DNA of 62,876 nt, the filler included, from Asterionella formosa (taxonomy: Eukaryota), in NCBI GenBank assembly GCA_002256025.1. It is 16 parts of 16 records of this genome, joined end to end, with 100 filler letters (N's around TTAATTAATTAA, not from the genome) between each part and the next. Parts side by side here need not be neighbours in the genome. Positions count along the whole stretch, not along the records: positions 6,295 to 37,740 come from NKIB01000672.1; positions 37,841 to 39,837 come from NKIB01000673.1; positions 39,938 to 41,934 come from NKIB01000674.1; positions 42,035 to 44,030 come from NKIB01000675.1; positions 44,131 to 46,124 come from NKIB01000676.1; positions 46,225 to 48,220 come from NKIB01000677.1; positions 48,321 to 50,316 come from NKIB01000679.1; positions 50,417 to 52,411 come from NKIB01000680.1; 8 more parts are not named here. One strand, 5' to 3'. This document shows positions 2,099 through 62,876 of the stretch, one piece after another (the stretch's first letter is position 1; every line of letters starts with the position of its first letter). A program made the position numbers and the translations under genes. Below the pieces are notes generated by a model. That model ran no database searches. It was not told the origin of the DNA and saw only the letters and a list, made by a program, of their open reading frames with translations.

Positions 2099-2179
2099 TT
2101 ATGGTATCATATCTATACAGCGTAAAATATTATATGTAGTGGTGGCTGATGATTCATTTCATTGTAGCTAGCAACAACT

Positions 2180-6480: not shown

Positions 6481-8563
6481 TTTTGCGCGATCGCCAATAG
6501 CGCCAACTGGCAAGTCATCTTATCAAGATTGATGCCCACCACATGCTTGTGGTGCTGGAGCAAGTTTCATGGTCTCAATGGAACACTTTTTTCGTTTGTA
6601 TTTGTTCCCCCCCTTCTCACCGGAAGGTTGTGTTTGTTGAGTCTCATGCTGTTCCGGTCTATCGGCTAGATTATTGTTTCTCTCACTGCTGTGTTTATCT
6701 GCATTACATGTATCTGGTGTCAAAGTGGACGATGCAGTAGTGGTGGCTCTGGTTCCAAAGGTAAGTGTACTGCTAGTTTCGATTCGTTCTGCTGGGGAAC
6801 AATCCAATAGCACTATAGAATTCAAACCCCCTACTACTAGATCTTTGCTGTCATTATTCAATTTCTTCAAAGGGTACTTCACCATGTCTTTTGTTAGCCA
6901 CGTTATTGTGTCAACTTTGTCTGCTACTCATAATCTAGATAGCAATAGCGCCACTTGGTAAAACAACTCCTCCACCGCTAGCCTTTCTAACGTCTACTTC
7001 TCTGACATTGTTGTTTAGAACAAGCTTTACTAAATCCTTATCTAGAGACTTACAAATAACTCTGTACTTGCTCGAGGTTTGGTACTTCTTCGGTTCATTA
7101 TACTAAGTTGTAACATCCGGAGAAATGAAAATGTGGTATATTGTGATGGTCTCGAGAGCATTTCAGGATGCATCTATGTTGACAGTACAAAATCACTAAA
7201 TTGCTATGGTGTGAACTAGTGTGCATGTTTACATTGGGATGTCGCACACAATCGCGCCGTAATTATAATCCACCTCAAGAAAAGCGTTAAAGGAAGCTAT
7301 ATTAATTTGGAGTATAAAACATTATTTGATATCGTATATGAATATAAAATGTCGGCCCAGCGAAACGAGGTAATTTTATTTTCTTCCGATGTGCCTCACT
7401 CAACATTTTCGAAGTCGTTTATCTCACCAACTGGAACACAACATCGATCGGGCGTTAAGACATCCTATATGTAGATGCGTGAAACAAATGACTTGTTCAT
7501 AGTAAATATTGTCGTATTGCTAAAATTGAAAAAGTTTGTAGTACAAAATGTAAGATTACCCCGTTATAGTGGTCTAAGCAGTTCATAGTGGTCTTAAGCA
7601 GTTTTTGACTGGTACCTGGTATCAGGTACCAGGAACCGGTAGCCAATGCTTGACTGCTCGACTGACCTTGCATGTGCTTATCGGTACTCGCCCGCTCCCT
7701 GGTAAACCTGGTATGCTACATCATGTAGTAGGAACCGGTAGACAACCTCTACATCCAGCGGTACCAAGTAAAGTCTCCCATTATCCCTACGCGTGTACAG
7801 TATGATGCATGTAGGCGTACTTTGCTCGCCCGGCGGCAGCGGCATTGCCCTGTTGGTTGTTAAATACTCCGAAGTACCAGGTACTGTCGCTTCATGTGAG
7901 ACCGCCCAGGTTGCCTACATACCGCTATGAATGCATACATGTGTGAGGATCAGACTACCTGTACCAGTACCTGGTACCGGCACCAGGTACCTTCACAAAA
8001 GTGACCCCAAATTCTGCCGTCATTACTACCAGGTACCAACCAAGTATATACTGTTGTCTGTTGATGTTTTGAGAATCACGCGAAAAAACGGGTACTACCT
8101 GGTAGGCGCATCAGGTAGAATGCATGAGGTAAATAGCAGGCGAGTCCTCGGCAGCTCCTTGTTGGCTGTTGGGGGTATCTGGTGCTACTCCCTGGTACCG
8201 AAATGATCCCTATGTAGATCTCATTTATAAAACTACGTAGAGCGAGGAGGAGCAACAAAGCAAACGGATGAAAGCAAGCACAAGGTTGCTTCTTGATGAG
8301 CAATGCTAAAGTCAGAATAATTCCTATACCTGAGTGGTACACTGCTTACCGACCGGCTACTCTCATCCCTCAATAGAGTACTAGATTGACAAGACGCCGC
8401 AGACCCGTTGGCAACCCAGACGAGGAACAAACTGAGTAAACACAAGGCGGAATAGTTGATTACCGGTAGCCGATAGTTGTGCTGAATACCGGTTGCACAT
8501 TTTTGAGAGAACACAAGTGATAGCATCGCTGCGCTGCATTCGCCGCCACGCAAACACCGCACG

Positions 8564-11500
8564 ATGGGTCGCTACAGAGGAACTCTCCACAAATTGGTCG
8601 AACAGGGTCCGCTCAAAAAAGGTAACTGGAATGTTCTGCTTAACTACCTCGAAGGTCACGCCGTTGGAGATCGCGACGCATCCAATCCTGCCTTTGATTC
8701 GCCCATTCCTCCCTACAGCATTGCATCTCCAGATTTGGAACGAGAACTTATCAGTGCGCAAGGCCCCAAACAGGACGAGACCCCCCTGAGGATTGCAGCA
8801 CTTTGCAAAGCGTGTCCGAGTAACGTTGTGGCAGCGCTCTGTCATTTGGGTCCTGAAGCGGCGCGGTTGGGAGATGCAAAATCACGCCTTCCGCTTCATT
8901 GGGCCTGTCGACGACCTACGGATGACCCGGATGCTGAACAAGCCTTGAAAATACTTGTCTCTGCTTATCCTCAGGGACTTTTACATCGCGACGATGGAGG
9001 CCGGACGCCGCTTCATTACCTATTTTGGTACCATGCTAGTACCCGATCGGTCAACCTCGTGGAGCACTTTTTACAAGAATTGCCTTCCTCCTTTTTTACC
9101 GGATTGACACAATTGCCCACTATCGATGGGCCTACGCTGCCCGCAATTCCTCGCGTGACGCAAGGTAAATCAGACGTTCCACACTCGGCTGCCATTATAT
9201 ATGATTGTAAACATGGAGCCTTGCCGCTACACTACGCTGTAATGGGAGGAGCAAGCAAGGAAGTTGTCAAGTTATTGCTGCAACATTACCCACACGCCAA
9301 GTTGTTAGTAGATCGACGCGGTCGTTCCTCCCTCGCGTGGCTGTTTGGGGCTGGGGAAGGTGAGCACGTGTCTGGAGAATGCCCGGATCCCAATGCACCA
9401 CCACTTTATGAACAAAAGGTTAGCAGCAACATCGTGCATCTTCTTTTGGGGTCTAAAGTGGCACGCATGACCGATGATACAGGAAGAACGCCACTTCATT
9501 GGGCTTGTTGGTTGTCTGGAAAACATTACTACATGGCTCAACCCGAGACCAGTTGCATATCTGTTAGAGTGGTACAAATGTTGCTTGATCACTATACGGA
9601 AGGCCTCTTGGTACAGGATACAAACGGCAAAACGCCACTTCATTTACTCTTTGATGTTGTTTTGGCCCAGCAAGACGTGGAGTGGCAGAGATTGTTGCGT
9701 AATCAATTGATACGAACTGATGTGGACTTAAGAATGGGACAGGCTGTACCGGTCTATTCGCCACCAAGAGAATTGGTGGACTTGTTGTTGAGGTGCCCCG
9801 ATTCAGAAACACAGCGGAGTGCCGCACATGTTGAAGACGAAGAAGGTAGACTTCCTTTGCATGCCGCCGTGGCGACGGGAACATCGTCAGAGGTGATTCA
9901 AACTTTGATTCAATCTTATCCAACTGCATTGGTACACACGACGGAAGAGACGCTTCAAACGCCACTTCATACGGCTCTGGCATCGCCCTTCATCGCTCCC
10001 TTACAAAACGAAGCCAATATTTCAATATTACTTCAAGCTTACGTAACATCGCGTCATGGTACATTTGTCAATGGAAAGTTAGCATTAAAATTGGAAGACT
10101 CAAACGGGATGTATCCACTGCATCATGCATGTCAGAATCAAGCCTGTCTAAATGTCATTTCAACCCTAGTGGATCGATACCCTCGAGCCTGCAGATTTCC
10201 AAACGGAAACGGCGACCTTCCCGTCCACTGTTTACTAAATCAAGAGTCCTTCTTTGGGTCGACAGAATATACTCTTGGTGCATCTCTAGCAGCACCAATG
10301 GGGTGGATGTCGCAAGAGGAAGAGTCCTTTCGGGTTTCAAGCTTGCAAGTTATGCAACAGAAAATACATGTGGTGGTGAAAACATTGGCCACGGACAATA
10401 TTTCATTGATGGTTGGTAGTTCGGCTCACGGCATGCTCCCACTCCACATTGTGGTCGCATTTGATGCTGCTCCCTATGTAATGATTTATCACATGTTGGA
10501 AACCTGTCCCATAGCCACACAGCAATGTACAACAGCTGTTGGCCATTCCTATACTCCTCTTGATTTGCATGACATGAGACGACCAGCCGCCAAAGACGAA
10601 AATCATTGGAATCAAGTTTGTGAACTGCTCTTTGCATATGGGCCTACGTTGGAAACACATCGACACAACGACGAACTTTTGGATCGATTTGCGTCGCTCA
10701 TTAGAGACGAGATCACTGGGGTTGGTTCGTATCACTTGACCGAGTGGATAGACATGAAGAAAACAATGTCTTTTCATGATTTGGCCATCAACGAAACACT
10801 TTCGACGGTTCAAGCACCTGAGATTGATACAGGTACCAAGCCAAAGCCCAAAACTCCGAGATCTACCCCCAAAGCACAGGCGTTGGCGAAGAAGTCGAAA
10901 AAGAAGAAAAAACCGTCTCCAACTAAAAGTCCACAAGGCAGCAAAAAAAAGTCGATCTACGATGATGATGGCGATGGAGGCTACGTTGTGAGCATTGGAT
11001 CGGAATACGACGATGATGAATTTTCTGGCTGTGATCAAAGTGATGAAGAATACGACTCAGAGTATGATTCTGACACATTTGACAGAAATGGAACTTTTGA
11101 TGAGAATACTTTTCAAACCGAGTCCCGTACTCTGGATGATGAAACATCGCTAGGTCAAACTTTTGACGACCTCACAATCGCTGATGAAAAAAAGGGAGTT
11201 GAACCTTCATCGGATTCGGCTATACCAGTCTTAAACGTTCCATCTGACAACGAAAAGGAAAAGCAAGTGGCAACGCCTTTCTTGAGCCAAGTAGCCTTAC
11301 GAATATTCACCTTTTTTGTCCTTTACCGTAATCCATTCTCTGTCGAAGATAACTACTCGAAGCAAGTTGATATGATCCTCGATTCGTTGGATTTTTCAAT
11401 TGCTGAAAAGTTAGTTTCACTTGAAGTTCCCTGGTTTGCCAAGGAGTACGTTCGGAATGAACATGGAAGCACATTTGCACAAGCTGCAAACAATTTTTGT

Positions 11501-14095
11501 CGAGCAATTATTCATAGGATATTTTATTTTATGGGAAAGTATGAATTCCTTGATGATGGAATACTGATTCAAAAGAGCAATGATGATCAGACTGTGTTAA
11601 TCCGGGCATTGGAGTATACAGTTAATATCGACGAAGTCAGGCAAACAAACCGTGAAAATCCCGGAATTGATGAGGCAGCCATCTGGGAAACTGGTGAATT
11701 TCCTGTAGAAACATCACTTTACGCGTGGACCACGTATTCAATCACATCCCGCAAGGTGTGCTTCAAGTTTATGAAGAGTCAACAAGCTTACAAGCGAGAA
11801 GTAATGTCTCGTGAAATCATGGGTGTATCGTTGGATGGACATCCATCTTCATCGAAAACATTCACTCCTTTGATCAACCATTTTAACTCACATGGACTTG
11901 AACGAAAGGTCGATCGACGATACAAACTCGATTGCCAGGATGACAGATTCAGCACTTTGCATATATTTGACGCTGATGGACTTTGTCGGCACGAAGGGAA
12001 GAAAATGTTTTTACCAGATTATCCTTTCGCTCTCGTCCTCCCTCTCCATGAAGGAGGTGACTTGTTCAGTCATTTTCTTAATCATGGAAAGATGAGCATG
12101 GAAGAGATCAGGTTGATAGGTAGACACATTGGCCAGGCTTTGACTGGCATGCACGAAAAGGGATTGGTCCACGGACAAGTTAGTTTGCAGCACATTTCTT
12201 CGATTGCACTACCCGATGTAGACGAAGGACACAACGGATATTGGACGCTCACAGGGCTATCATCAACTTGTATGCAGTCTTCCGATTCTTTCATGGCAGG
12301 AATTGAGGCCAGCGGAGTTGCTAATTTCTCAACAGGAAGCTTCCCCCCTGAGCTATTCACAAAACTAACACCGGGCGAACTTCTTATTTACAATCACTAC
12401 TGGGACACAGTACAAAGTGCATACAATGTTTCCCTTGATCCGACCGTTATCAACCCTCAAGTCGACTCGGCTACTGGCGAACCCTATGTTCTCAAATGTT
12501 ACTTCATGGGAGGCGACAAAGATGATCTTCCACCGCTTCCTTACCCGCTTGTCCCTGTGCGTGAGACCGTAGATATCTGGTCATTTGGAAAGACTCTGTT
12601 TACTTTATGTAGTTCCGGCCATCCCCTGTTTCCGACAAACATAAAAAGCGGACATGTCCTTGCATACGATCAAGTAGCAAAATGGGATCATGACAATGCT
12701 CGAGCCTTGATTTACAAAAACGTGGATGATCCACTTGCTCAAGATTTGTTACTGCATATCTTGACAATATTTGAGGATAGATCTATACTACAAATGGCAA
12801 CACTATTGATTCACCCATTCTTCACTCAACTGGAGAACAATGGTAGTCTTGGAACTATGCTCAAACAAATTGTTGAGCAGCGATCGATAGAAAGTAGAAT
12901 GTATATCCGATCACATGATGTCAAGAGTTCTGAGCAAGCTGAGAAGCAATGGCTGAGTCAACGGACAAAGTCTGTTGTCTGCTGGGATCTTGAGTTTCAA
13001 TCCAGAATATATTTGTCTCCTTCGAATCTCATCAAGCGTGGCTGCACAAAAGGTCAGACGATTGCAGATATGCCCTTAAGCCTGCTCGTTCTCCCCTACA
13101 AACTCCTTCGGAACAAATCTGGAAAGCTAACACCTTCAACAAAAAAGGATGTCGAACGAGCCGAACGGATGGGAATACAACTATTGGCACTGAGCAAAGC
13201 CTGCCACTTCGTTGCACTAATGGACCAAGTTGTGGATGGTAACGATGACAGCGAAGCCCACAAATGGTCGACCACGGAGGTCTCTGCTGCTATGGCGCTT
13301 TCCTCAGATGATTTCAAGGGTCTCGAGGAAGAAATGACAATTTTGGCAGCCCAAGAAATTGAGCTTTTTCGAGAGAATCCGGTACACGTCGCTCGTCGGC
13401 TGATACACGAGCGAATAAAGGATTTGCAGGCTAGTTTTGATGAATCCAAAAAGGCCTTCTTTTATCTTGTTGACGAGTATGAAGGCATTCCGATTGTTGA
13501 ACTTGACACACCCTATCCACACGAAGCCGATTGTAAGATTTCGGAACTCCTTCAAAATACTCTCCCGCTTATGCACTTGTCAGCTCTCTATATGAGAGGT
13601 GTCGCTGGAAGCGTCACAGGCCTCGTCAAGTTAATCTTTGAGGCCGCATACCCGCATATCCCGCCTTCGTGGAGCGCCGCCGCATCTGGATTAGAACATG
13701 TTTTCGATGAAGAACGCATAGTGATGGAAGTCAAACTTCTTCGTGGGGCAATCTCCGATCTCTATGGCAACAAGCGGGTAAATCCCTTAGACGATATTCA
13801 TTTTCTCCAGGAGTACTTGCAGACCTTTGATCCCCTCAACACATACGCTAATTTGAAGCGCGTGACCAGTGGTGAGTCGTCCTTGTGGACATCAGATAAG
13901 GGGCTGGAGAAGATTAACGACTTGGCAAGTGCTTCTTCAATTGAAAAAGCCCGCAAAGACCAGGCGGATCAAAAAGCAGCGCTAATGTGGCAACAGAAAA
14001 GGATTGTTGAACTTGAGAATGCCCTGGAAAATCTTGAGTTTCGAAGAGACCACGAGCTTAACGTTGGCGTGGACTGGAGTGCAGATGCACCATAA
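8564..14095 (+). CDS. Ankyrin-repeat protein with acidic linker, kinase-like (probably pseudokinase) domain and C-terminal coiled coil, 1843 aa
   Basis: Repeated G-x-T/L-P-L-H ankyrin motifs (GRTPLH, GALPLH, GKTPLH, GRLPLH, GMYPLH). Kinase landmarks VCFKF, GGDL and DIWSFG, but HGQ replaces HRD and there is no DFG. Single uninterrupted ORF. Confidence 0.88.
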   Translation: MGRYRGTLHKLVEQGPLKKGNWNVLLNYLEGHAVGDRDASNPAFDSPIPPYSIASPDLERELISAQGPKQDETPLRIAALCKACPSNVVAALCHLGPEAARLGDAKSRLPLHWACRRPTDDPDAEQALKILVSAYPQGLLHRDDGGRTPLHYLFWYHASTRSVNLVEHFLQELPSSFFTGLTQLPTIDGPTLPAIPRVTQGKSDVPHSAAIIYDCKHGALPLHYAVMGGASKEVVKLLLQHYPHAKLLVDRRGRSSLAWLFGAGEGEHVSGECPDPNAPPLYEQKVSSNIVHLLLGSKVARMTDDTGRTPLHWACWLSGKHYYMAQPETSCISVRVVQMLLDHYTEGLLVQDTNGKTPLHLLFDVVLAQQDVEWQRLLRNQLIRTDVDLRMGQAVPVYSPPRELVDLLLRCPDSETQRSAAHVEDEEGRLPLHAAVATGTSSEVIQTLIQSYPTALVHTTEETLQTPLHTALASPFIAPLQNEANISILLQAYVTSRHGTFVNGKLALKLEDSNGMYPLHHACQNQACLNVISTLVDRYPRACRFPNGNGDLPVHCLLNQESFFGSTEYTLGASLAAPMGWMSQEEESFRVSSLQVMQQKIHVVVKTLATDNISLMVGSSAHGMLPLHIVVAFDAAPYVMIYHMLETCPIATQQCTTAVGHSYTPLDLHDMRRPAAKDENHWNQVCELLFAYGPTLETHRHNDELLDRFASLIRDEITGVGSYHLTEWIDMKKTMSFHDLAINETLSTVQAPEIDTGTKPKPKTPRSTPKAQALAKKSKKKKKPSPTKSPQGSKKKSIYDDDGDGGYVVSIGSEYDDDEFSGCDQSDEEYDSEYDSDTFDRNGTFDENTFQTESRTLDDETSLGQTFDDLTIADEKKGVEPSSDSAIPVLNVPSDNEKEKQVATPFLSQVALRIFTFFVLYRNPFSVEDNYSKQVDMILDSLDFSIAEKLVSLEVPWFAKEYVRNEHGSTFAQAANNFCRAIIHRIFYFMGKYEFLDDGILIQKSNDDQTVLIRALEYTVNIDEVRQTNRENPGIDEAAIWETGEFPVETSLYAWTTYSITSRKVCFKFMKSQQAYKREVMSREIMGVSLDGHPSSSKTFTPLINHFNSHGLERKVDRRYKLDCQDDRFSTLHIFDADGLCRHEGKKMFLPDYPFALVLPLHEGGDLFSHFLNHGKMSMEEIRLIGRHIGQALTGMHEKGLVHGQVSLQHISSIALPDVDEGHNGYWTLTGLSSTCMQSSDSFMAGIEASGVANFSTGSFPPELFTKLTPGELLIYNHYWDTVQSAYNVSLDPTVINPQVDSATGEPYVLKCYFMGGDKDDLPPLPYPLVPVRETVDIWSFGKTLFTLCSSGHPLFPTNIKSGHVLAYDQVAKWDHDNARALIYKNVDDPLAQDLLLHILTIFEDRSILQMATLLIHPFFTQLENNGSLGTMLKQIVEQRSIESRMYIRSHDVKSSEQAEKQWLSQRTKSVVCWDLEFQSRIYLSPSNLIKRGCTKGQTIADMPLSLLVLPYKLLRNKSGKLTPSTKKDVERAERMGIQLLALSKACHFVALMDQVVDGNDDSEAHKWSTTEVSAAMALSSDDFKGLEEEMTILAAQEIELFRENPVHVARRLIHERIKDLQASFDESKKAFFYLVDEYEGIPIVELDTPYPHEADCKISELLQNTLPLMHLSALYMRGVAGSVTGLVKLIFEAAYPHIPPSWSAAASGLEHVFDEERIVMEVKLLRGAISDLYGNKRVNPLDDIHFLQEYLQTFDPLNTYANLKRVTSGESSLWTSDKGLEKINDLASASSIEKARKDQADQKAALMWQQKRIVELENALENLEFRRDHELNVGVDWSADAP

Positions 14096-14407
14096 GGATG
14101 TCATAGTACTTACCAGAAAAATAGGTAGCTTTGTCAATTAGAATAGATTCTTTATGTTTATGGAGTAATTATTTTCCTGGGTTCGACAACATAACTGAGC
14201 AGTGGCATAAGCAACATTGGAAAATATATTGCAAGTCGAGGAGAATTTCGAAGGAAACGGAGTGGTATTAAGGGTCAGCGTGATTTGCACATCACGATTC
14301 ATGTATACCTAAGTTATTCTCGATTGCTAATATTTTCAAATTGCTGCTTTCCTATCTTGTCCATTTGGTTTCTTTTTTCTTTCTTTCACTAATGTGCTAC
14401 CAATAAT

Positions 14408-15268
14408 TTACCACCTTGCCTCTTGTTCATCAAACCAGTGCTTACCCGAATAATCAGCATCAATAGTGGCTAACAAAAAAGGAGTTCTGGCCCCCCGTTC
14501 TGCAGGTCTTGTACCTTGGTAATTATTTTGATCTGTCGCACAGTATCCAGGATCAACACTATTGACCAACAAATCAGGTCGATCCCGGGCTAGAGTTTTG
14601 GTGTAGGCTATGATTCCCAGTTTGCTCATACCATAGCATGTATTCGGCCATCCATTCTGAGAGTGGACACCGCTCTCGACTTGCTTGACAAAGGTACTCA
14701 TGTAGGTTTCGAGATTATTCATTGTCAGCGACGGATCCGTAAAGAGATCTACTTTTTGTTGCGACTTCATTATAGCCAGCCGACCCGCTGAACTGGCAAT
14801 ATTGATGACACGCCCTGACTTTGGGAGCAAGGGTAAAAGTGCATTCGTCAATTTGCACGTGCCGAAGAAGTTCGTTTGAATAGTAATATTGGCTTGTTGT
14901 TCAAAGGGCGTGTACGGAACTTTGCCAAAGAGGGTTGGATCGTTGAAGCAAATGGCAGCATTGTTCACTAAAATATCCAGTTTACCGAACTTCTTTTCCA
15001 CATAGTCGCGACATTTCTCAATGCTCACAGAGTCAGTCAGATCCAAAAATACAGAATGCTCGCATCCCAACCTTGCCGCTGCTTCCTCCCCATTGGTCCG
15101 GCATGCGAAAATTGTGGTGATTCCAGCATCATGCAGCTTTTTGGCAATTTCAAAGCCAATGCCCTTGTTGGCGCCAGTTACCAAGGCCACTCGAGACCTG
15201 CCAGTCGACAACGGAGTGCCAAATTGAGAGAGCATCATCATGAGGAGAGCAAGGCTAACCGGTTTCAT
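14408..15268 (-). CDS. Short-chain dehydrogenase/reductase, carbonyl reductase (CBR)-like, with predicted signal peptide
   Basis: VTGANKGIG Rossmann motif, LDILVNNA, catalytic YGMSK, VDPGYCATD, and a hydrophobic N-terminus. Confidence 0.92.
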   Translation of the reverse strand: MKPVSLALLMMMLSQFGTPLSTGRSRVALVTGANKGIGFEIAKKLHDAGITTIFACRTNGEEAAARLGCEHSVFLDLTDSVSIEKCRDYVEKKFGKLDILVNNAAICFNDPTLFGKVPYTPFEQQANITIQTNFFGTCKLTNALLPLLPKSGRVINIASSAGRLAIMKSQQKVDLFTDPSLTMNNLETYMSTFVKQVESGVHSQNGWPNTCYGMSKLGIIAYTKTLARDRPDLLVNSVDPGYCATDQNNYQGTRPAERGARTPFLLATIDADYSGKHWFDEQEARW

Positions 15269-17560: not shown

Positions 17561-18675
17561 TCTGACAAGCCAATCATGGAACATGGAATGAATGGTACAA
17601 ACTATCACCAAGAATGTCCATGACTCAATGAGGAAGGATTTGCTGCTTGATCATTACAATAAAAATGCATTGATGGTGAGAATCAAACAATGTAAAATGG
17701 AGTTATTCATTATGGTGAGTGAAGTGATTAATTGCGAGGCTATGGCTGAGCATATATGGCATGTGTTATATCACCAAGAGATTCATGATTAAATATTAAT
17801 GACTGATGGTATATTCATGATACATACTGGGTATTTCTTAAAATGAAGAGTCAATGAACATCAAATATTTGACTTTACTTTTATGCATGCGAATCAAATA
17901 TTTGGTGATTCTAATTTTCCATCATACCATGACAAGCTATGGGCGGCTATAGAAAGGATTGTATGTAAACGGTGACTGGTATTGTATGGTAAGCAACTGG
18001 AACAAAAAGAATCGCCACATTGAAGATGGCATCAACAGTATATGTATGATTGTACCTGTGATTCTTATTAGATCGTGCTTATTCTCTAATGCCTTCGTTT
18101 TTATTAACTTTACTCAAGAAGTTCTGGTATACTCGGAGTACTAAATAATATTTAGACATCAAGGAGTAGGTCGACCGGTAGTCACAACAGTTAGATAAAT
18201 TTGAGTGCCAAATAAATTCATATACAAAGTACGCAATAATAGAATGCATACACTCCTCCACTCTACTAATAACGTATGTACTGTGACGGATTTGGTTTTC
18301 ATGTACCATATTCATATCATACATGTACCGGTATGTAGGATCATTCTTTTATCATCGAATTTGAAATTGATCCAACGTGATGTTGCACACAACTATTAGC
18401 AAGCGAACCGTACGCACTATAACCGCGTATTTCAAGTTCCTCCCCCCCCTACAAATAATCGCTCTCCTTGATGAAATTCTTCGTATATCTTTGTTCGTTC
18501 ACGCAAGTGCCGCTCTGTTCAAGCCTGCACTGAAAAAGGTCTAGAAACCACCGCACATGATGTGTAATCTTTGTTCAAGCACTCACTCTTCAGGTTTGCG
18601 TTGCATATCGCACACTCTTAACATCCATCATCGCTGATCCAACAATATTACTCGTCCTTTCCTTGCAACGAAGCG

Positions 18676-21600
18676 ATGGCATCTTGTAAGCAGGAGCCAC
18701 GCACCAAACGAGCCGATGAGGAATTCATCAGCAACTTTGACACTGAGCTCACGGAGTGCGATCGCATTCCCTTGCATCACATCGATAGTATTCAGGCAAA
18801 TTCAGGCCATGTTGTGTATTGGAGTTATCCCTGTGGGAGCATTGTCGCATCAGACGCTCTCATTCACCAGGTGAAATGGATCCGAAAGCGTGACGACCAT
18901 GAAAGTAAGGGGAAGGGGGGATTCGAGGAGGATACTACCGGCACTCCTGACAAATCACCGCCTTCCTTGTTGGGAGACTCATTGCACAAGTGGATCCCCA
19001 AGATTCTCTACGATGACATTCTGGACGTTGTCAGAGGAATGGTGACGGCATGCTCCCAACGAGCCTTTCACTTCGCGACATTCGATAATCAAACATACGC
19101 ATTTTCTCTCTCGACCACTTTCTCGGACTATTCCTTGATTGGCATGGAAATTGAACATGTCAGGCCAAATGACAATTCCGAGAGCTTCTTGAATATCCTC
19201 GTGCATTTGGGTCGCATTTTGGATTGCCAGGTCCACGAAGTCATTGTCAACACAGCATGTGATATTCTCTTCGCATCTCTCGGATGCTATGATCGAGCTT
19301 TGGTGTATCGTTTTAATGACGACTTGTCGGGAGAGGTTATACATGAAATCAAAAATGAACACATTACTTCCTCGTACATGGGATTGCGTTTTCCCAGCTC
19401 GGATATACCCCTTTCTGCCAGACAACTATACTTGCATAACGGGTTGAGATACATTCATGACACTGAGGTTGACAGCGTACCTTTGGTGGCCAACAGTGAT
19501 GCTAAAATTGACTTGACGCAATGTCGCATGCGCGCCGTCGCCAAACCACATATTCTTTATTTGCGCAATATGGGCATGGTGTGTTCGCTCTCTTTTGCCA
19601 TTATTGTGGACAACGAGCTATGGGGACTTTTTGCCTTTCATGGATATGGTAAGCCCACAAAGCCTTCACTCCATCAACGCATCGCTTGTGAAACGATTAC
19701 ATCCATGGTTTCCGTCCGAATTGAAGCAATAATCAAGAAAGCCCAGAGTGGGCGGATCATATGTTTGGGGGAAACTCTGATGAGTTTGAAGAAAGGTCAA
19801 AGCGTGATTCACAACTTACATGATTGGGGTGAAGGTCTACTGGCAACGCTTGATGCTGATGTGCTTGTGGGACATATCCAAGACCCTCATGCAGAGGAAG
19901 GCGACATAATTGTCCTGGGCGATGCAAGCCTCGCTCCATCCGCCGAGTTCTGGTCAAAACTTGCTGTATCCCAACCTATTCAAGAACTCTGTGTCATGTC
20001 AACACGACATGAAATTGAGAAAAAAGGGTTGACCAAATTCGACTGTCCAGCATCCGGTGTCGTTTACTTTCGACAGGACCGCATGCACATCATGCTGGGA
20101 CGGGATGTACGCTCTAAGGATGTCTTGTGGGCTGGAGATCCCGACAAATCTAAAGTGCATATTGGAGGGATTCTAAGTCCTCGCAATTCATTTGCCAAGT
20201 TTATGGTGAAAGCCCATCAGGAGTCGCGAGCCTGGGATACTCATGACCTCAAAGTCATTTCCGTTTTTCGGGATCGTATTTGCAATCACTCTCATAGGTG
20301 GATGATGGAATTGCTTCGGAATAATATTGATGACACTAACCGCAAATATCTGCTGGCTATTGAAAGGGCCAGAGACAACTACGCATTCTTTGCGCACATG
20401 AGTCATGAACTCCGGACGCCCTTTCATGGTGTGATGGGATGTCTAAACATTTTGAACGATTCATCAGATGATATGTCGAGAGAGGAAATGAACGTCCTTA
20501 TGAATACCGCACTCACATCAGGGCAACATATGATCAATTTGCTGGATGAAATTTTGAACATTTCCAAGAATACACATCTATCTCATACTTGCTCAAATGA
20601 TGCAGTCATCTATCAGACCTTGGCATTCGAAGCAATTGACGGAATGAAGACATTTGCCATTTCAAGGAAGATTCCACTGACCTGTGAGATTATTCCCAAG
20701 AACGATAAGGTTATCATTCACACTGATCGTACAAAAGTCATTCAGATCGTGTCAAATACTGTGAACAATTCAATTAAATTTACAAGTCAAGGAGGAGTCA
20801 ACGTGCGATTTACGCTTGTTGACACGCTTCAGATAGCAATGGCGGAATGCGACCAAATTTCATGCAAACATTCTGGAGTTGTTTACATACTAAAAGAGGG
20901 TGAAATATTTACGTCGATTGACTCGGTGCGGTCACACATGCAGAGAATCCCAAATATTCACAACCAGAAATGGATGTGCATACGTGTTTCTGACTCGGGA
21001 TGTGGCATAGCACCATCAGAATTGGTCAGTATGTTTGAGCCATACACACAAGCCAGTGCCGGGAGTAATCGGACATTCCAGGGAACAGGCCTGGGTCTGT
21101 TTATTTGTGTGTCGCTTTGCCAGCAACTTGCGGGATTTATGGTTTGTGCCAGTACACCCGGTCAAGGAACAGTGTTCCATATTGGTATCCCAGTTCAGCT
21201 GGGAGATGACGCTATTCCTATTGAGCTTGCAGATGTTGACAGATTATCGCCTTTGACTGGTGCAGTAGATGTTATTGTTATGCGAGGGCCCATTATGATA
21301 GTAGATGACAACAAGGTGAATGTTCGAATCCTTCATCGTGCATTGCAAATTGGCCTCAAATCTGCAAATAAAGATATCCAAGTGCTCACAGCAGAAGGGG
21401 GTGAAGCTGCCATCGCCCTCTACAAGGATGCTCACCCTTCGCTTTGTATCATTGACTATCACATGCCTGAGACTGATGGGATCGCTGCCACGGGTGCCAT
21501 TCGAGCCTACGAGGAGGCGCATGGCTTCGATGCATCACTTATACTCTGTTATACGGCCGATGTCACTGATCAGACCAAACTGCTGTTACTCAGGTCTGGT

Positions 21601-42965: not shown

Positions 42966-43265
42966 ATATAGTCGTAGCTGTGTCCTGCACTGGTAGTTAA
43001 CTAGCCCCTTCGACAAAGCTCGCGATGTACATATACCGGTACTTGAGTACAGGGTAGACTGGGTACCAGGTACCAGTACATATAGTCGTAGCTTTGTTGT
43101 GCACCGGCACCTTCGACAAAAAAGCTATGTAGCGATGTACCGGTACTCGTTTAGACTGGGTACCAGGTACCTGGTACATAAAGTCGTCGCTATGTAGTGC
43201 AGTGGTAGTTAACTAGCACCTTCGACAAAGCTCAGTATATATACTGCCTTGTATAGAGTGGGTAA
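42966..43265. repeat. Three imperfect ~100-110-bp tandem units
   Basis: CATAWAGTCGTMGCT...TGCAS..CCTTCGACAAA at about 42966, 43079 and 43177. Confidence 0.8.
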
Positions 43266-47270: not shown

Positions 47271-47844
47271 ATATCCAATTCGGCCTCTTGATGTTGTGCT
47301 GGTACCTGGTACCATTTACAACCAGGACCTGGTGCGTCCTACATACGATGTGATGCTCCTTTGTTGTGCGTGAGCCCATTCTGATCATGAGCGAAGTTTT
47401 TGCTTACCTGGTACCTGGTACCCTGGTACATAAAACCATCAGTTGCACACTGCAGCCATAATAATCCAAAAGCTGAAGGCGCACATCGTCTTCGTTTGCT
47501 TGCCTTTGAATGCCTTCCTGTACGCCATGAACGACAATGCAGATCACCATTGCGACGTAACATCACCGAGAAAAGGAAATTGGGTGTTTGGTCCAAAGGG
47601 ATGGGCTAAAGAAAGAATACGACAAGTCTTGGGTTTAGCTTGTGGTTTGACAGTCATCACGTTACTGTTTTAGGGGATAGAATCTGGACAGCCCTTTCGG
47701 TACATGCTGTGGTTCATAGTTGGAGTTGTCATAAATATGCTCTACAATTCTGGCTCCATTCAATCACCGTGGGAGCTGGTGCTTGTATATCTCGGATTTG
47801 GAATGGTCACTACATCTAAGACGCCGTTTACGGCACTTTTTCAA

Positions 47845-48100
47845 ATTTATGTCTAAAGTGACGTATTTATGCTACTTTTCTAAAATATTATGCTACTTTT
47901 TTGGGAATTTATTTGGGTCAAACCAAAATTTATGTGTTCTAAAACAAAATTTATTCTACTTATCTAATAATTATGTGATCAAACCAATAATTATGTGAGT
48001 TCGCAACAATATTTTTTTCCAACTAGCCCTCATAACGGTATAATGGCGAAATTACGCGACTTCACGGCAATATTATGCTGGTCTCACCACATAATTAAGT
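47845..48100. repeat. ~20-21-bp phased WWTTATGY array
   Basis: Cores at about 47845, 47865, 47886, 47907, 47928, 47949, 47969, 47989, 48050 and 48071. Confidence 0.65.
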
Positions 48101-48320
48101 AAAGAGTAACTAATTTCGATTCAATTATTATTTTTTCCTCTATCACATTTTCCCTTGATATCGACTGCCAAAGAACAAACAGCACAAGCAGTTGTTGGCG
48201 CCGATATCCGCATCCACAAANNNNNNNNNNNNNNNNNNNNNNNNNNNNNNNNNNNNNNNNNNNNTTAATTAATTAANNNNNNNNNNNNNNNNNNNNNNNN
48301 NNNNNNNNNNNNNNNNNNNN

Positions 48321-52411: not shown

Positions 52412-54028
52412 NNNNNNNNNNNNNNNNNNNNNNNNNNNNNNNNNNNNNNNNNNNNTTAATTAATTAANNNNNNNNNNNNNNNNNNNNNNNNNNNNNNNNN
52501 NNNNNNNNNNNGTGCTTCTAGTTACGAAAAATTGTGATTCTATTGACACCGAATTTTTGCCAAACAAAGGATAACATACAGATTTGCTACAAGCCGGCCG
52601 TCCATTTCATCATTTCCGAAAAATATTTAAATAGGATGTGCTGTTAGCCAGAGAATTATCAGAGCTGGCGATTCATGAGAGGCAGCAGTGAGAGACCTGA
52701 AGTTTGGTTTCAGCTATACATGAATAGAGGGAGTTTGATTTTAAAATTTTCCGGCTTTTCTGATTTTCACTGTTGTTGCCCAGCATCCTCTTGAGCAAAA
52801 TGCAGATGTCTGAACCCCCATGGCTCCTTTTGCCACCACAGTCAGACTTCCATGACTGTGGTCGCCTCGCCAACTTTATGTTCCACCTTTCCAGCCGCTT
52901 CAAATGCCATCCTAAGTGGTACATCCCATCATAGTTTTATTGTTTCCCCACACCTTTTCATTATTTCCTCATTTGGCTGGATTGCCTGACCTGTTCCTGC
53001 CAGCCTCCAACCCCATTAAAAAAATTTGTAACTTGTTCCATCAAACCGGCTTGACTACTATCATACAATGCGTATACACTTTTAGAAGTTTGATTTCCAA
53101 CTTCTGCACCATCCATGTGAGATCATTTCATGATTTTCTCATCATAATTAAACCTCCTTCTTGCTCCCCAAAAAGGAGTAGTCCTAGCTAGCATCAGCCA
53201 GACATTTCGCCCTTCATCATCATCATCCATGTGGAATTCATGGAGCAAAACTACTATAATTGTCTCCCACCAGTGCCACCATCACACTTTCTTCCAAGCT
53301 AATAGTAAAACCGTCATTTACTGCAACTCCCACAGTATTTACCATGTCGCACAATCTTTGCATAATGGTTGATATATGATATACCGATACCTACTCCACG
53401 TACAGATCATAAAGTGGATGTACGACCAATGGTATTCTGCGTACGAACACGATCATGTGCATGTCGTCTGTGTGTGTACCAGGTACGAAATGTTGCGTTG
53501 AGTATGCATCATACATAGCATTTATGTGTGTACCGGTACTAGGTACACATATTACAGGCACCATGGACTACAGTATACGTAGGTGCTATGTATGTAAGAT
53601 ACAATGATCAGCGAATCTTTCTTGTTGCATTGAGTATACTGTTATACGGTATGCCGGTACGTATGCTATTTGTCATATGATTACATGTCCTGCATCATAC
53701 ATGGGATATTCCGGTCGGTGCATGTATTAGCAACAGTACCATTAAAATATTTAATAATTATTGGTATACTTCTGACGCGCTGCTTGTTCGGTTGAAGATA
53801 AATGAAACAAAAAAGCAACAAACCAACCAACCAAAGATACCGGGTAACAAGAAGATATCATCATTGCAAGAGCCGATAGTAGTGAATGTCAAACTCATCC
53901 ATTGATCTAAATAAAACCTGATTTACTGATTCTCTTTATCGATTTTATAACTTATCTAAACAGACAGTGGTTTCCCTTTTTGTTTGATTCGACCTCTCTC
54001 TCTCTCCCTCTCTCTCTCTCTCCGTATC

Positions 54029-54605: not shown

Positions 54606-56599
54606 TTGTGTCTCAAGGCCCAGAACCACGGACATGACCAAAAGCGCACAGACAGTAGACCACTGGACCACAGGGGCATAGGTTTCAAAATAGTCAATAC
54701 CTTCCTTCTGTAGATCCCCGCGTACACAAAACCGTGCTTTGCATTTGCGAACACGACCATCTGGAAAGAGCTTGCGCTTGAAGGCCCACGTGCCTGGTAG
54801 AACCTTATGGTTAATAACCGATGAACGGGGCACAAGCGTCCAAGTATTCTTTTTGGTTAAAGCAGTGACTTCAGTGACCATAGCTTCACGAAACAATTCG
54901 GAATCAGGCCCAGACATAGCCTCGTGATAGCGAGGATTATCAGGGTCCATTTTACGTGCCATGGCGGCGTAGATAAGAGGATCAGAACACTCAAGAAGTC
55001 CAGTGACAGGGTCGGTCATTACAGCACACATATAGTCCATTGCAGAATCAGACGCACTGACTTCAGAACATTCAACAAGACCAGCAAAGAATGCATTGGA
55101 AAGGTATCCTCCTGGTACAAAACGAGTGGGCCCGATTCCGCGTGTAGAACGAGTACTGCGGCGGGGAGAAGGGATGTTTGGAGGGAAAATTGCAATTTCA
55201 GGAGATGGAGGCTTTTCTGGTGGAAAAATAGGAATGGATGCTGGTGGTGGTGGCATCGTAGCTGGAATAATGATGGGAACAGGAGGAGGAACAAAAGGAA
55301 GAGAAACAAATTTGGACTCTCTCTGATTTGGTAGTTCATCGGGAGGTAGGTTCAAACGGGGAAAGATCTTAGATTCTTTTAGTAGGAGCCGGCGACGGGA
55401 AATGTCATCTGGTTCTAGCCACTCATCAGCAAGTGTGAAGTTTGTGTGTTCGTCAAATTTGGTCTCAAACCGGGACTCGTGAAAGATAGTTTCCCAATTT
55501 TCCGGAGGGTCGTCGGATATATTTAGCGAGGAAACGGTCGAGAAAAGATCATCAAAGACGACATGAAATTGTGGAGAAATATGTCCTCTTGTCAGATTAA
55601 GTACCAAGGGAACATTGGTACTATGAACATGGGAGATGCCAACAAAGATGGCGCGGCGGGAGCGAGGTTGCCAGCGTGGAAGCTTTTGTCCATTTTGTAA
55701 TTTTGGGTCAAGGACATAACAAGGACAACCCCAAACGTGTAAGTCCTTCAATCCATGACGTGGAAGGATGGATTTCGTAAATAAGTCCATGGGAGATTGT
55801 CCAGTCTTGGAAGTGGGCACATGGTTGTACAAATGTACTGCATAGTCCACCACCATAGGCCAGAGAGCAGGGTCAGCTGTAGAAGGCCAACGAATGGAAG
55901 CATGTAGCATCATGACACGGGCCATGTTGGAAACAGTGCGAATAATGCGTTCTGCAACACCATTTTGATGGTGAGCTCCAACACCACAAAATTTTACAAT
56001 TTGCCCTTTAGTTTGAATGACATCGACAAATTCACTGGCTCCAAAGCTGCCATTATCAGTAGTATATTTGCCAATCAAAACTCCAGAATTATAGCTCCAA
56101 TTTTCAAAAGCCATTTTAGCTTGCAGAGTTTCTAGGACAGTGAATCCAACTTGATGCTGAATGAAAAGTAGGCCAGATGAGTGATCAGTAAATATGCATC
56201 CCCCTTTGTACATATCGGTTGGTGAAGTCTTTCCTCTAGAAGTGTAAAGACGACCAGGGACCTTAGAAACAAAATGGTCAACAGAAACACCGGAGCCGGG
56301 ATAAAGGTCATTTGCTTTCACTCCCCCTTCTTTTTCCGGTGTCGGGGTGGATGTGGATGCCTGTAAGGGTTTACGGTGCGCCTTCCCGTATTCACAGGCA
56401 GCGCATTTTGGAGGAGTGCAGCGCGAAGCCGCTCGAATTTTCTGGGATGTACCAAATGATGGCTGACGTAGAAGAAATTGAATGGTGTCTGAGCAGAGGT
56501 GGCCAAGACGGAAGTGCCAGTGAAGATATTCCTTTTGAGCCTCAGTAAGGTTTTGGTTTGTTTCGTCTGTGACACATAAATTAAGGGAGGCTTCTTTGT
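54606..56599 (-). mobile_element. Ty1/Copia (CoDi-like) pol: pre-integrase HHCC, integrase and start of RT; open across the whole contig
   Basis: The frame continues upstream of 56321 as WHFRLGH...CAACEYGK. Then VSVDHF, TDNG, HHQNGVAER, VWGCPCYVLD, SPQFHVVFDD, WAFKRK, KARFCVRGD and YAPVVQW, in Copia IN-before-RT order. Confidence 0.95.
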
Positions 56600-56699: not shown

Positions 56700-58567
56700 T
56701 CATTGTAATCAATATTCTTCTCAGGAACATTTGGTTGAAGTGGTTCAACATCTTGATGCATATCCTCTTCACTTACGTTGGGAAATGAGAAGTATGAGTG
56801 TGGGCAGATGATATTTGTGGTGGAAGTAGCAATTCAACTAGGATTCCCTCCATATTCAGATCGATTCATTTGTGAAAGTCCAGTGTAGATTTCCTTATAA
56901 TAAACAAGTAAATCATCAGTTGCTTCATTGATCAGTGAGACCATTTGAAACTGAACTTTCTTCCCTCACACTTTTTTGATAAGTGGCATCCCACCCATGT
57001 CGACAAAATCAGTAGAATGACGAATATCGTTCTCTGAAATTTCCTGTGTATCTGGATTGAAACCCAAATATTTTTGTTGCAGTCGGAATTTTCCTTTCAG
57101 CACCAAGAAGCAAAATGCTTCTTTACTGGCATTGATCAGCAAACTGACAAAATGTGATTGCAATTCACACTGTGCCCGAACACTGAGTTGACAATTGGTC
57201 ACAACAGATTGGTTCTCCACGGCTTGTCCGGCCTATAAAATACACTGGAGCAAGAACATCACGCCAGACTTGGTATCCATGGCTTCGCCTGTCAATGTCC
57301 TTTGACTGCGCAAAACGATAAAGCGTCAACGCCCACCTAATAAAGTCATCAATATCCATAGTCTGGAAGTTATATTCTGTTAGACCAGCTGGTGTGTCAT
57401 GAATTATTTTAGCATTTTTAAATTGGAACATATTTGATAAGAATATAATCACCAAATCAAAACATCATGCTTTGGGAGCATCTCCCTGCAACTTACCTAA
57501 GATTCCTTTGAATTGATTATTCAATACATTCTGACATTCTCTCAACTTTTTAATGCACATGCCACCAAAGGTTTATTTGATGTAATCTAAACGTGCCTTG
57601 TTGACACATTCAATAGTCTGATTCATTGGAAGTAACGCATCGGAACCATTCCATATGAAATCGGCAAGCTCTTCTTGGTCACTCTCCACTTCTTTGCCTA
57701 ACTCCGGTTTCACTGTGTATAGCTGAGTTAGGCAACATTGGGCAAACCAATCCTGTTTGTGATTGGAAATGCCTTTCATACTACTTGGACCAGATAGGGC
57801 GGGATGTTTCATTCTCTTTTGGGACCGGAAAAAAACACAATAGATTGATATTCTGTTTTACAGTAACTGCAATTCGCGAACTATAACATCAAACTTACAT
57901 GTTCACAGCAAAACGTCTTGGTCTTGAAAATAAAACTCACAACCTTTGTGACAATTGATGGTTCAATTTTAGCTAAGCGAGAATGATGTTCTGATAAGGC
58001 TGCTGAAATTGAATAGTCTTGATAACCTTGTATGGACGAGTTTTGAACCGAATTACGACCTTTGTAGTGATTGAGTTCATTGACCAATTGATAATATCCT
58101 TTGGCCAGTGCAAAATGTTTTTCCCTCAGTTTGTCATGTACTTGTTGGTCCGTGCAATTAGAAAATTTATGATATGGTACCATGTCATCCATCTGCATCC
58201 ACGAGTTATGAATGGAATCATCGACAGGAGCCAATTTTCTTGTATCAATAACTGAAGTAGAAACGTCATCATCGCTGTCAGTATCAATTACGGGATCCTT
58301 TGTACTAGTAGCTGATGGTGTCCCCATCGACGATGGGGTATTACCCCCAATGTCTCCCAATCGCTGATTGGGTTGCTTTGGATAATCGCCTATTCGCTTT
58401 TTCTTTGTTAACTCATTTTGGAACTTGCTTCTTTGTTCCATACCAGCAGTAGCTATTTGCCACATGTCGCTTGTTTCCATGAACCTCTTTATAGTTTCTT
58501 GAAGACATTGTACTACTTGATAACTGTTGTCGTTGTCTTCCTTAAAGTTCGATGATCTTAAATTCAT
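56700..58567 (-). pseudogene. Decayed member of an unknown multicopy family (paralog of 2180-3500)
   Basis: Collinear broken ORFs 57881-58567, 57573-57812, 57165-57455 and 56966-57220. The first three match contig 2099-4096. Confidence 0.75.
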
Positions 58568-58970: not shown

Positions 58971-60784
58971 TTACTTAGAAGTACCCGAATGGCAAGACGA
59001 TAGCTGGAGCGGGAATTGCTTCAACAACTCAGATGAGTTGCTGGGAATTCGTGGTGTCAACCAATGAATTGTGTGGGAGTTTGCTTCTTCGATTGTAGGT
59101 AGGCAAACATTGAATGTAAGAAGTTTTTCATCATCAGTGAACAATAGTTTAATCTGAATGTCGTCAACCTCAATGCATTGCAAACTGCCATCCCGTTCAG
59201 AAATGTCATGAACAATAACATTATTACGCCTCATCACATGAGTGTTGATCAGCGCTTCTGTTTGTTCTGGTCTTTCATCAAAGGCTGCTCCCCCCAACCC
59301 AAGTAAATAGGTTTCTTTTGCTTCTGGATGTTCATAAGCAGTGACTGCATTGACAATTGGAAGAGTAGGTCCATCCATATTGGCCCCCCAACCATGCAGT
59401 TTTGCGCTCTTGCTCACATTTTCCAGAACTCTCCATCCTCCGACTCCGCCAATGACCTCAAATTCAGTTCCTCCATCAAGCACAACCCTTGCTGCTTCCC
59501 CCAGAATGCGTCCACGTCGGAGTACTGGGTTGCGACGTCCCTTTTTCTTTTTCCTGGGAGTCTCCTTCTTAGATTTCTTCTTTTGGGTAATTGTTGTAGA
59601 ATTTATTTCCTGGTCACTATCATCTCCATCGTCCTCACTGTCTTTGTCATCAGAGTCCTTGATTTTCACATGAGGTGTAGCCGTATCACATAATCCAGAA
59701 GCTGAGGTCTTTGTCCTTCTAGCCTTCTTCTTGCGCTTTCTTGTCTTTGGCTTGTTCTTGGAGTGGCATCCCTCGTCAGATTCGACTGAGTTGTCATCTT
59801 TCTTGGCATCTCCATTGGCGCCAGTCAACTCGTCGACACGAATTGCCCTTCCTTCATTATTCCAGACACTTCTCCACTTAAATAGATCTTTCTTGATAGA
59901 ATTGGATTTAATTGTATTGAGTAGGTGTGTGGGGAGGAAAGGAATTTGGTTGTCTTTAGATGATTTAGGTGTGGCTCCACCTTTACTTGTAAAAGTTGTT
60001 GCACGCCTTGCCTTGGTGGAACTCTCTCGTGAGAATCTTTCCAATTCCTGTTCTCTGCTCCGAATACGTTGAACACACTCATCAAAAGTCTTGTTGGTGT
60101 CACCACGAAGGTTCTGAACGCAAACATCATAGTCTTCATCCTCAATTTGATCAAGGAATTTAGTCCGCTTTGTTGCTTCAGTGTAGCCTTCATGTTTATC
60201 TTCCAACTTTCGACTGCAGAGGATGAACGTGTTTATGTACTCGTTAGCTTTCACCTTATTGGACAGTCGTAACTCATTGAGTTGATTCCTGTAGTGATCA
60301 ATAAGGGTCCTTGATACTTCTGCTTTTCCATACCACATCTTTAATCCAGTCCAGGCATCATGTCCACTCTGGAGCCCATTTGCATCAATTATATGATGTG
60401 CAGTCCCCTTATACAGTGCTTTCTTCAGCATGTTGTATAATTCACGGTCACGTGCCATACCTACTGTATCAGCTGGTACTGGCTTGCCTGTACCTGTCAA
60501 AAGTGTTGCATATGCCGTCTGCCCAAGTGTTGCACCTGTACCAATGTACCATTCCTCCCAGTTGATTGGATCCCCGGAAAAATCCTAGAGTGAATCAACA
60601 TATATTTTCGGGGCCCCACGCGTAGGGTCTACAGGCATGGCTGGTACTGCTGGTACAACTGCTTGTGCCGTAGTGGCCATGGGCATGCTTAGTGTCACCA
60701 TGACATTCTGCATAGTTGTTTGGACGTTTACGACATGTCCTCTTGCGAGAAATGTCCCAAGTCTTGCCAACTTGCGCCTAAGCA
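58971..60784 (-). mobile_element. Copia (CoDi-like) gag-protease region with one in-frame stop
   Basis: FSGDPINWEEW, LYNMLKKALYKGTAHH, SGHDAW, KFLDQIEDEDY, a basic/acidic linker and protease-like VLDGGTE. TAG at 60585-60587 separates two in-frame ORFs. Confidence 0.78.
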
Positions 60785-62374: not shown

Positions 62375-62513
62375 GATGGTTAAGGCGATAGAAGTCAGAA
62401 ATGGTTTCAATGCCGATGACGATTCACTTGTGTGATTGGTGGCTTGCTTCCGTTCTGTTTCTTGTGTCTGTCTATAACCAAAAGAAATCACCTTCCAGCC
62501 GCAATCATACGAC

Positions 62514-62876
62514 AGTACCTGGTACCAGGTACCTCGTACCCTGGTACCGGTACCGGTTCTGGTACAAGGTACTTACTCCTACATGGATTATACAGACGAA
62601 GATATGGCACGAACCGGTAGGAATGTCTAAATAATTCTCAGTGCCGTAGTACCATTACTGCCAGGCAACACACGTGGCTGGTACCCTGGTACCTGGTACT
62701 GGTACCGTGGTACCAGGTACAGTAATCTGGATCTTTTCACACCAGAGTCCCGCCGCGTATCTACCGGTACTATAGACTACCGGTACCTGGTATCATACTG
62801 TAATTCCCCAGAACATGCAGATCTGAAATGAATACCGTATTCCTATGTACGATACCTGCTTCCAGGTACCAGGGTA
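62514..62876. repeat. GGTACC / TACCWGGTA / TACCGGTA array upstream of the severin gene
   Basis: GTACCTGGTACCAGGTACCTCGTACCCTGGTACCGGTACCGG and further clusters at about 62680-62720, 62760-62792 and 62860-62876. Confidence 0.88.

Follow-up and report, generated by a model that had tools for sequence, protein, structure and literature searches.

What process wrote the short palindromes, each bounded by the dinucleotide TA, that cluster upstream of genes in the genome of the diatom Asterionella formosa? The window analyzed here, a stretch of 62,876 bases from assembly GCA_002256025.1, contains 69 strict units of this kind, in which CCGG, CCAGG, CCTGG or a longer relative stands between two TAs. 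We infer that a TA-targeting cut-and-paste transposon of the Tc1/mariner type, with ends beginning CCA(G), left the units behind as excision scars, which accumulate close to promoters; we give this reading a probability of about one half. The window comprises 16 fragments joined by spacers of the form N44-TTAATTAATTAA-N44, of which one (6295-37740) measures 31 kb and the other fifteen roughly 2 kb each. Positions 4197-6194 are the exact reverse complement of the fragment at 1-1998; the window therefore holds 15 distinct pieces, and whole-window counts take this one twice. Open reading frames (ORFs) of at least 120 amino acids, read from stop to stop, served as the proxy for coding DNA and gene models (36,384 bases, with 24,992 bases remaining).

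The units were greatly enriched over background. TACCWGGTA occurred 38 times and TACCGGTA 24 times in the window, compared with means of 0.25 (maximum 2) and 0.30 (maximum 3), respectively, in 100 dinucleotide-preserving shuffles, and the hexamer GGTACC was found 65 times against 10.5 expected from base composition. All eleven clusters named in the original prediction were recovered where it had placed them, and the clusters do occur on several unlinked contigs, with at least two units in 5 of the 15 distinct fragments (the main one and those beginning at 42035, 46225, 52512 and 60885). The perfect words were accompanied by a set of one-letter variants about equal in size, in which all positions were affected, the core as well as the edges. 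For TACCGGTA in non-ORF DNA, 34 such variants were counted against 7.7 expected, alongside 21 perfect copies; they included the CpG-transition forms TACTGGTA and TACCAGTA, with 4 copies each. A ratio of perfect to one-letter variants near 1:1 is what steady birth combined with neutral decay would produce.

The units were nearly absent from the loci of other diatoms that were compared. Scanning of metagenomes with an exon of the UAA transporter yielded 12 loci (49 kb; protein identity 47-62%), all 12 from other diatoms and none from the same species. These loci contained one TACCWGGTA and one TACCGGTA, both in the locus L005; the other 11 loci (about 45 kb) had zero units, which is a weak test of conservation in such distant relatives. 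The contig end at 4377-4411 of L005 resembles a Nextera adapter and is presumably an assembly artefact of the public record. Three matches of viral contigs to an 18-base array pattern lay in apparent coding sequence and were set aside as chance rather than arrays. No report of such arrays was seen in literature listings on diatom motifs, diatom core promoters, mariner elements and footprints.

The internal structure of the units was highly regular. The modules listed in the original prediction were all present: between TAs we counted CCGG 24 times, CCTGG 22, CCAGG 16, CCCTGG 4 and CCAGGG 3, together with CTGG (7) and CCAG (6) and a rare second unit, the 11-mer TACTCGGAGTA, which contains CTCGGAG and occurs at two non-coding sites (18130 and 36475). 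When the sites were written as TACC-x-GGTA, x was nothing in 24 of 74, T in 22, A in 16, CT in 4, AG in 3, G in 2 and C in none, with TT, GA and GT once each. The arms TA-CC and GG-TA are thus constant and variation is confined to the center, where a single letter was A or T at 38 sites versus G or C at 2. The bounding TAs are also common in the wider set of ACC(W)GGT cores, of which 62 of 91 were flanked by a preceding T and a following A.

Among 53 strict chains, 41 were single units, 8 were double and 4 were triple. Neighboring CCWGG units had the center letters T-A in 4 cases, A-T in 4, T-T in 4 and A-A in 2, so that the same letter recurred 6 times and a different one followed 8 times. 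The center letters of adjacent units are therefore independent, in keeping with the mixed orientation noted earlier, whereas slippage predicts runs of the same letter. The outer TA was preceded by G at 59 of the 106 chain ends and by GG at 29, and the wider consensus reads G-TA-CC(W)GG-TA-C; many chains therefore continue into imperfect units. Tandem Repeats Finder detected arrays of period 7 at the clusters, with 2-9 copies each, and periods of 6, 7 and 8 were mixed inside arrays. Array sites attracted dozens of contigs with unrelated flanks (consensus agreement 0.33-0.5), and the arrays are therefore dispersed over many loci rather than carried in a larger repeat. The idea that the arrays are leftover copies of one inverted repeat was rejected, as the order of center letters varies from array to array.

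The units were strongly biased in their position relative to genes. TACCWGGTA was found 0 times in ORFs and 38 times outside, TACCGGTA 3 times in and 21 times outside, and GGTACC 11 times in and 54 times outside. Control palindromes displayed no excess outside ORFs (GGATCC, 12 in and 1 outside; GAATTC, 12 and 3; CCATGG, 13 and 8). The claim that the units are rare in coding sequence was thus borne out, and the ORF share was 0 of 38 for the 7-base unit and 3 of 24 for the 6-base unit, which preserves the reading frame (Fisher P = 0.054). When inter-ORF stretches were halved at their midpoints, 52 strict units lay in 10,478 bp of 5'-adjacent and 5 in 11,056 bp of 3'-adjacent non-ORF DNA; of the remainder, 9 were in a fragment without an ORF and 3 were within ORFs. 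The units therefore lie mostly upstream of genes, as had been stated, at 5.0 per kb on the 5' side versus 0.45 per kb on the 3' side, an approximately 11-fold difference. Because the units are clustered, the binomial P of 1e-11 exaggerates the significance of this difference. Four of the five 3'-side units fell in a single open-ended fragment (46670-48220) and the fifth at 22278, while both convergent gaps (14093-14410 and 28658-29310) and most 3' flanks had none. Clusters sit 100-1100 bp 5' of ORFs.

For comparison between populations, Logan contigs of three public DNA runs (X2, X6 and X7) and one RNA run (X8) were aligned over 18000-37740. One RNA contig ended at 30905, just before an array starting at 30948, and another started at 23267, just beyond an array ending at 23175; the array at 33132-33438 was contained entirely within an X8 contig (31924-33702). 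RNA contigs of this kind show neither transcript starts nor transcript ends, and the side of the transcription start site on which an array lies is not readable from them. Among the DNA runs, X2 nearly matched the window, with a 10,796-base contig differing by 8 letters and one 6-base gap at 30948, and X6 and X7 diverged slightly more.

Unit-type differences accounted for 4 of the 12 indels listed, from a total of 40. The isolated TACCGGTA at 30948-30955 was a plain TA in X2, 6 bases fewer than in the window and at full depth (149.7 of 149.7), and was without the deletion in X6 and X7 (depth 5.79 and 5.6). The TA at 36922-36923, within the polymorphic site 36920-36923, was TACCGGTA in an X8 RNA contig, 6 bases more than in the window (event 36921), a form absent from the X2, X6 and X7 contigs. 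In the sequence TATA at 22894-22897, the TA at 22896-22897 carried 5 extra letters, CGG plus TA, in one X2 contig (event 22895; depth 71 of 286), giving TA-CGG-TA (TACGGTA). Finally, the first 7 bases of the two-unit array at 23161-23175 were lacking in X2, X6 and X7. By majority rule over the runs, the differences at 36921, 22895 and 23161 resemble gains. With contexts compared by eye, the differences at 30948, 36921 and 22895 were not copies of adjacent letters and their empty alleles were plain TA; ordinary slippage is therefore no explanation for these three. These alleles differ by the presence or absence of exactly what a footprint would leave, with TA on both sides of the inserted letters, and the comparison of strains thus turned out as the excision-footprint idea of the original prediction had foreseen.

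Within the window, the tandem units U1 and U2 (42963-43174) differ by 7 bases in a manner readable as TA versus TA-CAGGG-TA, and a third unit is without the stretch. Two smaller differences were also seen: TA-TG-TA at 22857 was TA in X2, and extra CATATA letters lay between tandem units at 42963-43076. They represent either 2-base scars like those of Tc1 or simple slippage at TA. Unrelated slippage was present as well, as a loss of 7 bases in an ATATCAT repeat at 37576. Two other comparisons were uninformative on unit gain and loss. The stretches 2250-3260 and 57500-58500 are 94% identical in opposite orientation, match no Pfam family and are either copies of a dispersed repeat or paralogous genes; their sole TACCGGTA differs by two substitutions and no indel. 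A local repeat with 99-bp spacing at 7590-7790 likewise had only ungapped differences.

Under the proposed mechanism, an element would insert at TA and duplicate it, with ends that start 5'-CCA(G) and finish (C)TGG-3'. On excision, the transposase would cut 2-3 bases in from the element's end on the non-transferred strand, leaving TA plus CC or CCA on each flank. End joining of two bases with two would give TA-CCGG-TA; where terminal A's met, the mismatch would presumably be resolved either way to give TA-CC(A/T)GG-TA, and 6-letter centers would be rare products. Each scar would supply one more TA. If insertions were limited to a zone of a few hundred bases 5' of genes, presumably open promoter DNA, new scars would therefore often fall beside old ones and short arrays would grow, while frame-shifting scars would be removed from coding DNA. 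Held at the even odds given above, this scheme would account jointly for the fixed arms, the A/T-only center, the independence of neighboring centers, birth at TA, the ratio of variants and the frame pattern. The transposon as agent, the identity of its ends and its targeting of open chromatin are the parts that we infer.

The scheme has close parallels among known elements. Sleeping Beauty has TACAGTA or TACTGTA as its canonical scar, and what lies between the TAs of a Tc1/mariner scar is the element's first or last 2-4 nucleotides (nt) (excerpt of PMC6943129). The units described here are like those in that excerpt in having TA on both sides, a short palindromic core, an A/T-only center and shorter variants. 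They are unlike them in a core of CC(W)GG or CCGG that is one base pair longer on each side, and unlike Tc1/mariner footprints in their thousands-fold local density, in the confinement of arrays to 5' flanks and in that no element was found in the window. In an oligonucleotide of the 5' inverted terminal repeat (ITR) of Mos1, CCAGGT comes after TA, and the 5' break falls 2 or 3 nt into the element (excerpt of PMC2642840); cleavage of this kind at such ends would leave either CC or CCA behind on both flanks, which the present units require. The case differs from Mos1 in that the window yielded neither a mariner transposase nor a mariner ITR, and in that Mos1 scars in flies have 3 bases of one end between TAs.

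Excision of Stowaway and mariner elements leaves the target-site duplication and letters of the terminal inverted repeat (TIR), according to an excerpt of PMC4561436, and the present units share with the footprints of these plant mariner-like elements the TA on both sides and, if they are scars, would share the few TIR letters retained. They differ from Stowaway in that no miniature inverted-repeat transposable element copies were seen in the window and in the end letters of the main unit. The Stowaway end consensus starts CTCC, and the rare unit TA-CTCGGAG-TA may have been left by another TA-targeting element, one whose Stowaway-like ends start CTCC. What appears new relative to the known mechanism is the scale, these being the top over-represented non-coding words, together with the confinement to 5' flanks and the growth of arrays with ongoing polymorphism in the wild.

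Several observations weigh against an origin by excision. The footprint idea stands on the whole-unit indels between strains and on the layout of the units, but the TIR family with ends CCAGG, CCTGG or CCGG that should accompany it was not found in the 62,876-base window: a search for pairs of TA-CC(W)GG and CC(W)GG-TA placed 40-8000 bp apart gave 3 hits with matching inner arms, all of array against array. Similarly, no Tc1/mariner transposase was detected among the 25 window ORFs scanned against Pfam, and the candidate element end at 37657-37663, a lone CCTGG plus TA that reads TA then CCAGGTG on the minus strand from 37663, had no inverted partner within 3 mismatches. To our knowledge, strong promoter targeting is not a property of Tc1/mariner elements, and the bias here is about 11-fold. 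CCATGG, the junction of three bases with three, was found between TAs at 0 sites in the window, and 6-letter centers require either four retained bases or one added base. A shared promoter element would explain equally well the small cluster that L005 has some 70-160 nt upstream of an ORF.

The polymorphisms themselves also leave room for doubt. All four were called from metagenome contigs rather than reads, and the directions given by majority rule are tentative. The event at 30948 resembles a loss in X2, the run nearest to the window, and the stretch at 23161 equals the neighboring 7 bases save one letter, so that it could be either a slippage loss or an altered copy. Adjacency is similarly equivocal. 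When units were placed at random TAs inside clusters, 10.1 ± 2.6 adjacencies were obtained against 16 observed, and 2% of 5000 runs reached 16; the simulation is partly circular because the clusters were drawn from the units. The GG flanks imply that true adjacency exceeds this simple simulation, so that the element probably has some preference for G-TA-C as its target, or slippage contributes as well. The suggestion that the element inserts at GTAC sites was upheld only in part: G precedes the outer TA at more than half of the chain ends, yet GTAC is the context of just 1 of the 4 polymorphic sites. A target-site duplication of GTAC rather than TA was discarded, since the empty alleles have TA where the surrounding sequence is not GTAC.

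The alternative that survives best is that the words are bound by a promoter protein, such as a dimeric transcription factor, and are kept in lineage-specific homotypic clusters, with the indels arising by hairpin-aided deletion between TAs and by rearrangement of arrays. We consider this unlikely but deserving of serious attention. Homotypic transcription-factor clusters are likewise palindromic words grouped upstream of genes, and the 5' bias and the distance of the clusters from ORFs fit a protein-binding promoter code, which the original prediction had offered as its alternative, just as well as they fit scars. The extended palindrome G-TA-CC(W)GG-TA-C would also suit such a site, but half-site spacings of 0, 1 or 2 bases around an A/T-only center are unusual for a dimeric factor, whose sites would have a fixed spacing that was not seen here. 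RNA contigs stop a little short of two arrays, in keeping with promoter elements; another array is contained in full in an RNA contig. The event at 30948 resembles a loss, as this explanation would have it, whereas the exact 5- and 6-base gains at plain TA (36921 and 22895) are impossible by point mutation and point to birth by insertion. The cluster upstream of an ORF in L005, a distant diatom, argues for a shared element, but 11 of the 12 other-diatom loci are without units, a weak test given the distance of these relatives. One-letter variants are equally common in core and edges, and no such diatom motif was seen in the literature listings. Binding and transposon origin could coexist if scars were put to use. 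In a stronger form of this idea, an active or domesticated transposase would work in nucleosome-free 5' DNA and its scar arrays, (GGTACC-W)n, would be co-opted as protein-binding or nucleosome-excluding cis-elements, with promoter strength in this diatom lineage tuned by gains and losses of scars that still segregate among lake populations; we find this combination distinctly improbable.

A third explanation is that the arrays are a self-growing, microsatellite-like repeat of the 7-base word GGTACCW, extended by slippage or hairpin template switching with neither mobile element nor function. The period-7 arrays and the difference at 23161, which is a single 7-base period resembling its neighbor, are what such a process would leave, and slippage does occur elsewhere in this genome (37576). 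However, most of the strict chains consist of one unit only and offer slippage no template, and the isolated differences between TA and TACCGGTA are not copies of a neighbor. A microsatellite would show head-to-tail copies of one unit and new alleles copied from a neighboring unit, a pattern that these data do not follow; periods of three lengths are mixed within arrays, center letters are independent and the 5' bias is left unexplained. The view of the original prediction that the arrays are unlike simple slippage is thus well founded, and we regard slippage as very unlikely to be their source.

Iterated palindromes are also known from bacteria. Like HIP1 of cyanobacteria and the bacterial REP and BIME sequences, the present units are highly iterated short palindromes, but they are 4-6 nt between TAs and lie in a eukaryotic nucleus, unlike these bacterial families. 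BIMEs mix orientations, and REPs are 20-40 nt long with a known transposase-like mobilizer. HIP1-type words occur across coding DNA as well, and CCWGG and CCGG are classic methylase sites. Another writing process, either a HIP1-like bias of a CCWGG/CCGG methyltransferase with mismatch repair or a TA-specific nuclease adding fixed filler, is highly improbable, since the 7 CTGG and 6 CCAG modules between TAs could be deaminated CCGG but the 9-mer TACCWGGTA is missing from coding DNA, repair bias alters letters and inserts no 6-7 bases at TA, and we know of no nuclease that adds constant filler letters.

The DNA of the window comes from the nucleus of a raphid pennate diatom. Its sequence was present in 20 listed public runs from 13 studies, mostly of lake and other freshwater metagenomes, and it contains long, intron-poor ORFs. 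Among these is an intronless diatom phytochrome (18622-21759) with GAF, PHY, HisKA histidine kinase, HATPase and receiver domains, whose best named relatives belong to raphid pennate diatoms (Seminavis, 50% identity; Mayamaea, 51%; Nitzschia, 44%). Relatives at 75-78% identity were found in further metagenome assemblies, with a sister species at 76%.

The clusters are placed along these genes as follows. The cluster at 7611-8199 lies upstream of the plus-strand ORF 8507-14092, with TACCWGGTA at 7613, 7875, 7968, 8027 and 8096, and a TACCGGTA with a half unit at 8461-8492 lies close upstream of the same ORF. Sparse sites at 18130-18333 precede the phytochrome ORF (TACTCGGAGTA at 18130, CCGGTA at 18175 and TACCGGTA at 18326). 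Upstream of the plus-strand ORF that begins at 23396 there are two lone units (22278 and 22686) and one chain of three (22740-22762). Three clusters accompany minus-strand ORFs: that at 30822-31308, which contains the polymorphic TACCGGTA at 30948, is upstream of ORF 29311-30729; that at 33132-33438 is upstream of ORF 32071-32931; and that at 35231-35392 lies immediately upstream of the ORF for the nucleotide-sugar (UAA) transporter. This minus-strand transporter ORF has a near-perfect 53-nt tandem duplication at its 3' (stop) end (33741-33851; 94% matches, with the two aligned copies 96% alike).

The largest cluster (36399-36687) contains GGTGC/GCACC variants and the TACTCGGAGTA at 36475. Sites and arrays at 42187-43176, including the tandem units U1 and U2, are located in a fragment without a long ORF. 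Two arrays lie at 47301-47428, with a three-unit chain at 47405; TACCAGGTA and TACCGGTA (53477-53538) lie upstream of the plus-strand ORF that begins at 53960; and a cluster of 11 units (62516-62876) lies upstream of a minus-strand gelsolin-repeat ORF.

The polymorphic TA at 36920-36923 is located in a high-copy repeat (36846-37740), whose depth in X2 was 2000-6000 against a baseline of about 150, or 15-40 times, and the candidate end at 37657-37663 sits beside it. The repeat corresponds to the final 660 nt of an RNA contig 5286 nt long and contains a 123-amino-acid ORF (37178-37546) that ends in a CCHC-like cysteine/histidine motif, matched no Pfam family and had a single, uninformative relative.

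Other repeats and mobile-element remnants were also observed. Fragments of a Copia-type long terminal repeat retrotransposon (54609-56597 and 58974-60584, with gag, pre-integrase and RVT_2 domains) contain almost no palindromic units. A 650-amino-acid ORF at 48321-50270 has a weak match to the GCR1_C domain (E 6e-5), a domain also known in Crypton tyrosine-recombinase elements. An ORF of 1754 amino acids resembling M6 peptidases contains about 14 copies of a 24-nt tandem repeat (25313-25832) that encodes an 8-amino-acid, proline- and threonine-rich unit. AT-rich tandem repeats of 22 nt form arrays at 320-606, mirrored at 5589-5875, in a fragment of lower GC content (36-38%).

These data do not indicate a function for the scars, and their origin and their use are separate questions. 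Diatom promoter grammar is poorly known. If the words bind protein instead, they would constitute a very dense, lineage-specific promoter element in diatoms. If they are excision scars, transposon traffic rather than selection on sequence would have written the top over-represented non-coding words of this DNA, and scars of this kind could pass for a regulatory code, which would call for caution in motif discovery. The 5' flanks of genes would then be a heavily used landing strip, and the arrays a natural record of insertion preference that would serve as a proxy for open chromatin in an uncultured and widespread freshwater diatom, as well as a fast source of unit-sized promoter variation between its populations.

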